Assembly: GCA_951406725.2 (NCBI GenBank)
Contig: OX597828.1
Location: forward strand, 10,788,001-10,852,000
Direction: 5' to 3'
Length of the DNA: 64,000 nt
Source: Octopus vulgaris
Lineage: Eukaryota
Made by a program: the position numbers and the translations under genes. Below, one piece after another: positions 39,910 to 40,495 of this stretch. Each line of letters starts with the position of its first letter. Positions within the stretch are counted from its first letter, which is position 1. Below the pieces are notes generated by a model. That model was given only the letters and a program-made list of their open reading frames with translations. It did no database searches and was not told the origin of the DNA.

Positions 39910-40495
39910 TTACACTTCTATATTTAAGAGATGAGGAATTATGTACATTATTTACATTGTTTACATTTGACAGATATTTGTCCTCATCTTGTTTGTCTTT
40001 AACACAATGTTTCGGCTGATATACCCTATTATTCAATTCACTGCCTGAAATCTAACTCGGAATCTTGGGGTGTAGAGCTCGGGCTACTAACCCCAAGATT
40101 CCGAGTTCGATTCCAGTCAGTGATTTGAATAATAATAATAATAATAATAATAATAATAATAATAATAATAATAATAATAATAATAATAATAATAATAATA
40201 ATAATAATAATAATAATAATAATAATAATAATAATAATAAGAAGAAGAAGAAGAAGAATAAGAAGAAGAAGAAGAAGAAGAAGAAGAAGAAGAAGAAGAA
40301 GAAGAAGAAGAAGAAGAAGAACAACAACATCGAAAAATACCTTAGAAATGAGAACCCAGGTTCGAAATTTCTCCGAGACATCTGATGAAGGTTGGAGGGT
40401 ATATCAGCCGAAACGTTGTGTTAACAACAAACAAGATGAGGACAAATATCCGTCAGATGTAAATAATGTGAATAGTGTAAATAATCTTCATCTTG
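39910..40495. mobile_element. Head-to-head pair of a tRNA-headed, hammerhead-bearing retroelement; 17-bp TSD
   Basis: TSD tcttgttaatcttcatc at 39893-39909 and 40496-40512; ~90-bp inverted ends (39938-40027 vs 40396-40485); central inverted aactcggaatcttgggg/ccccaagattccgagtt; B box gagttcgattcc; internal (TAA)n(GAA)n. Confidence 0.85.
40377..40422 (+). ncRNA. Minimal type I hammerhead ribozyme motif (Penelope-type)
   Basis: gacat-CTGATGA-a-ggttgg(agggtata)tcagcc-GAAA-cgtt|gtgtt: intact core, 6-bp stem II with GU pairs, palindromic ACGT stem III, stem I gacat/gtgtt. Confidence 0.75.

Follow-up and report, generated by a model that had tools for sequence, protein, structure and literature searches.

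The window analyzed here, a 64,000-nt stretch of the Octopus vulgaris genome, contains a small hammerhead ribozyme motif downstream of a tRNA-like head and a simple-repeat linker. A preliminary description read this arrangement as a SINE with a borrowed tail, the pseudo-LTR (pLTR) of a Penelope-like element (PLE), and proposed that PLE rather than LINE machinery moves it. The question raised by this locus is what kind of element joins a tRNA head to a ribozyme, and how it is transcribed and copied. We conclude that the window probably holds a decayed, head-to-head solo pLTR of a Penelope/Poseidon-type element, with the tRNA head likely acting as a Pol III promoter and copies likely made by the element's own reverse transcriptase (RT) and endonuclease (EN).

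The hammerhead unit is one arm of a head-to-head insertion

The hammerhead unit forms the right arm of a head-to-head insertion at 39912–40485, an arrangement on which the preliminary description was silent. Direct repeats of 13 nt flank the insertion (39899–39911 and 40482–40494). Its features are:

39899–39911, plus strand: left target-site duplication, 13 nt (identical 13-mer at 39899 and 40482)
39912–40027, minus strand: inverted arm, 3' part of the pLTR tail from loop II to the long end, including the optional ~30-nt extension; without CUGAUGA
40031–40078, minus strand: inverted arm, 3' part of the tRNA-like head, fused to the tail piece via an internal deletion
40080–40127, plus strand: tRNA-like head in forward orientation, missing its 5' part and the A box; B box at 40103–40114
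40128–40324, plus strand: (AAT)n(AAG)n linker, found by TRF; length and unit differ between copies
40348–40485, plus strand: first ~46 codons of the partner PLE ORF by translation (ATG at 40348), stopping at the short 3' end
40377–40422, plus strand: minimal type I hammerhead motif within codons 10–25 of the partner ORF; predicted cut after 40417
40482–40494, plus strand: right copy of the 13-nt target-site duplication (identical to the 13-mer at 39899), which overlaps the short end of the element

An inverted self-match pairs 40055–40130 with 40106–40031 at 87%, and blastn aligns 39929–40027 with 40396–40493 at 89%; the long-end motif lies at 39916. The left arm has an internal deletion and no hammerhead core. 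On the right, the B box at 40103 and the linker at 40128–40321 (repeat content (AAT)37.7/(AAG)27.7 by TRF) stand as first described; the head, however, has lost its 5' part together with the A box, and ARAGORN called no tRNA in it.

All elements of the reported hammerhead could be located. Stem I pairs 40377–81 with 40418–22, including one U.G pair at the core; CUGAUGA (40382–88) is followed by an extra A at 40389, a 5-bp stem II (40390–94/40405–09), GAAA (40410–13), the palindromic ACGU (40413–16), and a GUU triplet (40415–17) whose position agrees with the predicted cut after 40417. The motif has the full minimal PLE type I set: a CUGANGA/GAAA/UH core, stems I and II, an extra base after A9, and a palindromic stem III. 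A strict minimal-hammerhead descriptor, applied to both strands, matched the 64-kb window once, at this motif, and had no match in 20 shuffles. Rfam at gathering score reported neither a hammerhead nor a tRNA family in the window. The stability of the predicted fold is not unusual (z-score only -0.82), and for a near-typical family copy the minimum-energy fold is 1.4 kcal/mol more stable than the hammerhead fold.

Head, linker, and tail are a single dispersed unit

The head, the (AAT)n linker, and the ribozyme tail travel as one unit. Exact head matches number 2,049; of the first 100 by position we used 90, and removal of one duplicate left 89 heads. Among these, the tail lies downstream in 78 and on either arm in 84, which bears out the proposed linkage of head and tail. 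The best-scoring heads, the query locus included, have the tail in 25 of 30 cases; seen from the tail side, a head lies upstream of 51/69 full tails, and many of the others have an inverted head or other elements inside the linker. The exact tail 26-mer occurs 5,564 times in the 2.8-Gb genome and is present in 25 of 125 head-selected arms, giving an estimate of ~28,000 arms. At least 58% of sampled family words are present in each of five organisms. A same-strand tail was found upstream in only 2/89 loci; the copies are thus dispersed and lack the tandem units of non-LTR retrozymes. The 61 matches to a hammerhead pattern with a shorter stem-loop II were read as deletion derivatives.

Family heads with A and B boxes match tRNA-Arg genes of their own genome (49/77 and 51/79, z 7.6–7.8) in a comparison that covered 25 distinct tRNA sequences of that genome. 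We assign the Arg isotype tentatively, since Cys and Thr are close behind. Rfam and ARAGORN called no proper tRNA in the family heads, and Rfam on L034 to E 10 gave neither a tRNA nor a hammerhead family. Other elements have landed in the (AAT)n linker: in L010, L016, L029, L361, and L367, a repeat of ~500 bp and LINE-like 3' ends, which we take to be R4/Dong-like, stand between or after head and tail.

An autonomous partner carries the same head in its pLTR

In a translated search of 301 other loci, a PLE-type RT family was found adjoining the arms in six; it has 8,062 candidate copies in the genome. The head lies downstream of the RT in 14/20 and 16/20 loci of two sets with two loci in common, that is, in 28/38 distinct loci, and the remaining RT-anchored loci end earlier or jump into the tail. 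The autonomous PLE with the same 3' region, for which the preliminary description had recommended a search, is therefore at hand, and it bears the head. Its 3' order is ORF, ~30 nt, head, linker, and tail (in L377 the head begins ~33 nt past the frame end). The tail encodes the first 54 codons of the ORF and continues in frame into the RT ORF in L404, L410, L413, and L415; the hammerhead-coded residues also align with the 847-aa protein P0004, at whose N-terminus the alignment begins at residue 18. As in Penelope/Poseidon elements, the ORF starts within the hammerhead-bearing pLTR.

The partner protein matches RVT_1, and its homologues span 98–99% of the query. A PF01541 (GIY-YIG) match falls in the C-terminal region in 5/19 aligned relatives; the decayed partner copies give none alone. 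A Zn-finger-like linker between RT and EN is described as a trait of Neptune and Nematis (PMC8557442); the Cys motif is absent in L377, L386, P0002, and P0004 and present in families A and D. We regard the partner as apparently of Penelope/Poseidon type, a clade name that rests on anatomy. Among 150 scored, the longest open frame has 569 aa, and no intact partner ORF was seen.

Head-start arms and PLE-attached arms carry three lineage markers at similar rates (for 62A, 19/130 vs 12/60). From the head that follows the ORF, the tail that encodes its N-terminus, and these like marker rates, the short element is therefore the partner's whole pLTR. This changes the first reading of a separate SINE with a borrowed PLE tail, as the tRNA head is also in the PLE's own pLTR and the same variants are found in short and attached copies. 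The window copy is very probably a solo pLTR of the PLE identified here.

Two other routes to a partner were tried. Neptune-like families from a genome GIY-YIG search were rejected, having no tail in common with the element, and a search with the tail peptide returned short copies only (the longest frame in 150 scored being 236 aa). Metagenomes gave no match to P0004 used by itself. The sole longer protein that matched the tail peptide, the predicted Octopus sinensis isoform P0001, starts with that peptide (residues 1–36) joined to a cysteine-rich, apparently membrane protein, a fusion that possibly reflects exonisation or an annotation artefact.

Several other PLEs of interest were encountered. 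L091, L092, L093, and L094 (ORF 2939–5281) belong to a young Neptune-like family in which many 781-aa frames are open; it also has a further frame of 479 aa upstream and, in its pLTR, a hammerhead-like motif with a U3-A8 core swap. Other PLE families have hammerhead-like variants near their 3' ends (L100, ~5830–5880; L104, 5800); in one of them the core is of CCGAAGA type. Different hammerhead-like motifs also lie in a tandem unit of ~494 bp (L102, 2226–3125) and in a repeat arranged head-to-head (L107, 886–1313).

Insertions have the footprint of an EN+ PLE

The described footprint of PLE insertion is an inverted arm, a 30–40-nt extension at one end, and target duplications (PMC8557442, PMC3846280). 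In the octopus family, an inverted, 5'-truncated arm lies upstream, head-to-head, in 62/89 loci. The 52 two-arm loci include 46 that could be classed by their ends, six with shorter ends being left out: 22 are long/short, 22 short/long, two short/short, and none long/long (Fisher 3.5e-11), so that the ~30-nt extension is on one arm only in 44/46 pairs. Direct repeats of at least 8 nt flank 28/46 pairs (17 of those repeats are 12–14 nt long), compared with 2.8% of mismatched pairs, and target duplications are mostly 9–14 nt. RNA reads of another organism have the same two 3' ends as the genomic long and short arms. In Anolis, the PLE protein PAc is reported to nick and extend both strands from two internal RT start sites, whose spacing equals the length of the family extension (PMC11167929).

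With the unit common to the PLE and this footprint, both the identity of the tail as a PLE pLTR and mobilization by PLE rather than LINE machinery are upheld. The SINE2 pattern, in which a common 3' tail points to mobilization by a LINE, does not apply: here the whole unit is common to a PLE.

The arms of a pair agree in lineage markers (p 2e-4 or less), and the agreement is partial, which suggests that the two arms often derive from two RNAs. A separate observation concerns base changes in RNA reads (L114:1470–1740, runs X21–X23), where A>G is seen at 41–45 places and T>C at 31–35, vs 7 and 8 in contigs of another organism. The excess is possibly A-to-I editing of hairpins from head-to-head arms, the RNA and the DNA being from different organisms.

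The 5' border and the lack of shared T runs suggest Pol III transcription

If the head were a working promoter, Pol III would start at or just before it. In 14/89 head loci the copy reaches into upstream PLE sequence; the other 75 start at head nt 1–2 in 35 cases and at nt 1–9 in 59. Same-strand ORF-end sequence precedes the 5' repeat in 0/30 tail-ORF junction loci, and in the four of them where a same-strand head comes directly before, it starts at nt 1, 1, 4, and 29.

Oligo-T is a Pol III terminator (PMC4494074). Partner copies contain 54 TTTT runs in 125 kb aligned, none of them in more than 7% of the covering copies, at a coverage of at least 12 throughout ~2.5 kb. As controls we used 80 related metagenome loci, 57 of which have a frame of at least 300 aa; none of the 57 is free of TTTT, and one control ORF has a single TTTT in 2,088 nt. 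The 32 T-matched relatives have 224 TTTT in 57 kb (3.9 per kb), and four other PLE families of the same genome have 4–6 per kb. At 3.0–3.9 per kb, the Poisson chance of finding none in 2.55 kb is 5e-4 to 5e-5. Synonymous codon shuffles of single copies predict 1–4 TTTT per stretch and are individually weak (P 0.05–0.64; seven partner frames, one of which, with T 31%, is probably off-frame); L377 has three, with 3.0 expected. The lack of shared TTTT along ~2.5 kb suggests Pol III transcription of a coding retrotransposon; we propose that it arose because Pol III reads through the whole ORF from the 5' repeat. On these grounds we favor Pol III use by the element, with reservations. The A/B-box pattern gave one pair in the 80 control PLE loci, ~2.4 kb off the PLE match, and recovered 2/4 positive controls (one miss lay outside the slice, one has a mutated B box). 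No B box was found within 300 nt upstream of 10 control hammerheads.

RNA reads bear less directly on the promoter. They are equal on both strands, 84–86% run on into unlike sequence, and the fragmented cDNA reads, ~6% of three runs from another organism, contain no discrete transcript or RNA ends of the kind that the preliminary description had suggested seeking. Given this heterogeneity, they show read-through only.

Read-through also fits a reading in which the head is a passenger, a tRNA-derived piece that landed in an element transcribed, like other PLEs, by Pol II, with the short copies being 5' truncations at a palindrome beside the head. The partner does have an imperfect palindrome at the head's 5' edge, which could stall RT and give a sharp start, and pLTR 5'-end palindromes with self-priming are described in PLEs that have no such head (PMC3846280); the weakness of the single-copy codon shuffles also speaks for this reading. 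It leaves unexplained, however, both why no TTTT is shared over ~2.5 kb, when 0/57 controls are free of such runs, and why the A and B boxes are intact and stand precisely on the 5' border, and we consider it unlikely.

The abundance of short copies raises a further alternative, in which a classical SINE with its own masters came first and an autonomous element later adopted it as a repeat by template switching. Short copies do far outnumber those holding the 5' part of the ORF (~28,000 arms vs 211–313 candidates), and template jumps from the ORF to head or tail are common. Against this, the marker rates of short and attached arms are alike, so that no separate SINE lineage is visible; such a history appears improbable. 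Many copies among L508–L535 run from the repeat through a short 5' piece of the ORF and jump to head or tail, making miniature two-repeat elements.

A recurrent deletion at the predicted cleavage site

The preliminary description expected the hammerhead core to be conserved above background among copies. This was not seen: copies decay evenly (mean 94.7% to the majority), and the core, which includes one CpG base, has changed at 4.7% (56/1183) vs 4.1% (381/9392) in non-CpG flanks (p 0.45). The result counts against the ribozyme in a weak sense, as it is what would be expected of dead copies. The core is intact in 50/111 arms; its only varying site that acts as a lineage marker is the free position N7 (16/111), which is linked to another marker. 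Covariation analysis within the family gave no signal.

Support for a ribozyme comes instead, indirectly, from related PLEs and from a deletion hot spot. In 80 related PLE loci the descriptor, which itself required pairing, matched 13 times in sense, never in antisense, and never in five shuffles; 12/13 of the matches lie at most 600 nt after an ORF match or at most 150 nt before one, and their stem II sequences differ. Within the family, the GUU triplet at the predicted cut is deleted in 39/333 arms, compared with 0–7 at seven other 3-nt microhomology sites, and in 12–14% of covering RNA reads. With a stricter aligner the count in one subset is 5/90, where the other count is 12/134. The deletion is unlinked to the three lineage markers (p 0.36, 1.0, 0.46). 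Both arms share it in 4/23 affected pairs (p 0.066), so it is not always per-arm in origin. Of 21 5' truncations, four fall near the cut and an equal four at another place. The GUU deletion is possibly a fossil of cleavage, and we hold the case for in vivo cutting by the hammerhead to be evenly balanced.

The deletion could instead be slippage in a never-cutting relic, kept because it overlaps the first ORF codons. U is a poor base for cleavage at position 17, and U is what stands at the predicted cut. The even decay of the copies would fit a relic, as would the weak cutting of minimal hammerheads in vitro (PMC4209133) and the reported continued insertion of hammerhead mutants (PMC11167929). 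Slippage, however, would also be expected at a perfect AAC tandem 8 nt from the GUU, lost in only 7/337 arms, and the motif recurs in related PLEs with different stems. That relic reading is very improbable, and equally so is a TAA-targeting LINE as carrier of the unit, suggested by LINE-like ends that adjoin the linker in some loci: LINEs give no one-sided extension on head-to-head arms, and the LINE-like pieces are later insertions, because they lie between head and tail (L010, L016, L029).

A PLE that may make its own SINE

We return to the reading of the window copy as a decayed solo pLTR of a Penelope/Poseidon-type element with its own promoter. From the head, transcription of a 3' or solo repeat would yield a short, SINE-like RNA, and transcription of the 5' repeat an RNA through the whole ORF. 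A dimeric PLE protein would nick both target strands and prime reverse transcription at two internal sites, at about tail positions 150 and 180, one for each arm, and the arms would join at or near the small palindrome on the head's 5' edge. The hammerhead would probably cut only part of the RNA, with help from protein or from a dimer, and insertion would be independent of cutting. An RT copying the 3' cleavage product could re-anneal by a 2-nt GU to the 5' product, leaving the recurrent 3-nt deletion. A more far-reaching version, which we put forward with even chances of being right or wrong, is that the PLE captured a tRNA promoter, purged Pol III terminators from its ORF, and makes its own SINE, with Pol III RNA as the full-length template and the deletion in about one arm in eight recording cleavage in vivo.

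Comparison with known elements

In their described anatomy, the EN+ PLEs of the Penelope/Poseidon group (PAc of Anolis, PMC11167929; Pen2a_Av, PMC3846280; PMC8557442) resemble the octopus element closely. Their RT is followed by a C-terminal endonuclease region, of which the octopus partner would retain a decayed form; their ORF starts inside the pLTR, with the hammerhead over the first codons; and their two 3' ends lie ~30 nt apart, with the extension on one arm. Target sites are duplicated, the 5' arm is inverted, and the 5' edge of the pLTR has a palindrome. The promoters of PLEs are given in these texts as TATA/Inr-like or left unspecified. The octopus element differs in a pLTR that opens with a tRNA-derived A/B-box head and (AAT)n, in having no shared sense-strand TTTT, and in solo pLTRs that vastly outnumber ORF-bearing copies. 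Its motif agrees with the minimal hammerheads described for metazoan PLEs in its pLTR position, in the additional base that follows A9, in G10.1-C11.1, and in having a short stem I and a palindromic stem III; stem II of the copy studied here has 5 bp, compared with 7–8 bp in schistosome families (PMC4209133).

The Schistosoma elements Sm-alpha and Sj-alpha (PMC6765202, PMC2770079) are likewise described as having a hammerhead behind a Pol III promoter of tRNA origin, and as numbering tens of thousands of copies. Tandem arrangement is said to be frequent among them, their canonical hammerhead releases monomers, and no partner is named in those accounts; the octopus copies are dispersed, carry a minimal motif whose predicted cut marks no element end, and have an identified partner. 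Animal non-LTR retrozymes (PMC7229834, bioRxiv 10.64898/2026.07.22.740005, PMC8969392) are also described as non-autonomous and pLTR-related, with a type I hammerhead and proposed PLE mobilization, but as tandem arrays giving circular RNA, whereas the octopus element is non-tandem and has a tRNA head; the words 'tRNA', 'promoter', and 'Pol III' are absent from the text of bioRxiv 10.64898/2026.07.22.740005. Finally, tRNA-derived SINEs, including SINE2 (PMC4494074, PMC8969392), are similarly short, with a tRNA head bearing A and B boxes and no internal T4. The octopus unit differs from SINE2 in having no LINE-type tail or partner and in sharing its head with an autonomous element. In the main text of open-access papers we came across neither a PLE whose pLTR carries a tRNA head nor a tRNA SINE that depends on a PLE; repeat libraries or supplements may already contain a consensus.

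In the usual description, SINEs are transcribed by Pol III and ride on LINEs, and retrotransposons with coding capacity are Pol II units. In the octopus, a single tRNA-derived head is common to a coding PLE and the SINE-like copies that descend from it. A Pol III unit within a terminal repeat has a precedent in Cassandra elements, whose LTRs contain 5S. Through the common head a PLE could turn directly into a SINE, and ribozyme SINEs like Sm-alpha would gain a candidate type of partner. If Pol III does make the long RNA, either an uncapped RNA must be translated or template and message are separate RNAs. A copy number in the tens of thousands makes questions about PLEs testable, among them the one-arm extension, the use of one or two RNAs, and cutting by minimal hammerheads in vivo; for PAc, such RNA ends were looked for and not found (PMC11167929).

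Two minor observations concern SINEs of the octopus itself. The short form of the element could correspond to one of the SINEs OK, OR1, and OR2, named from octopus in 1994. Elsewhere in the window, a SINE-like repeat of 185 bp that contains a B-box-like motif stands twice in tandem at 34320–34670; it is also present in L060 and L061.
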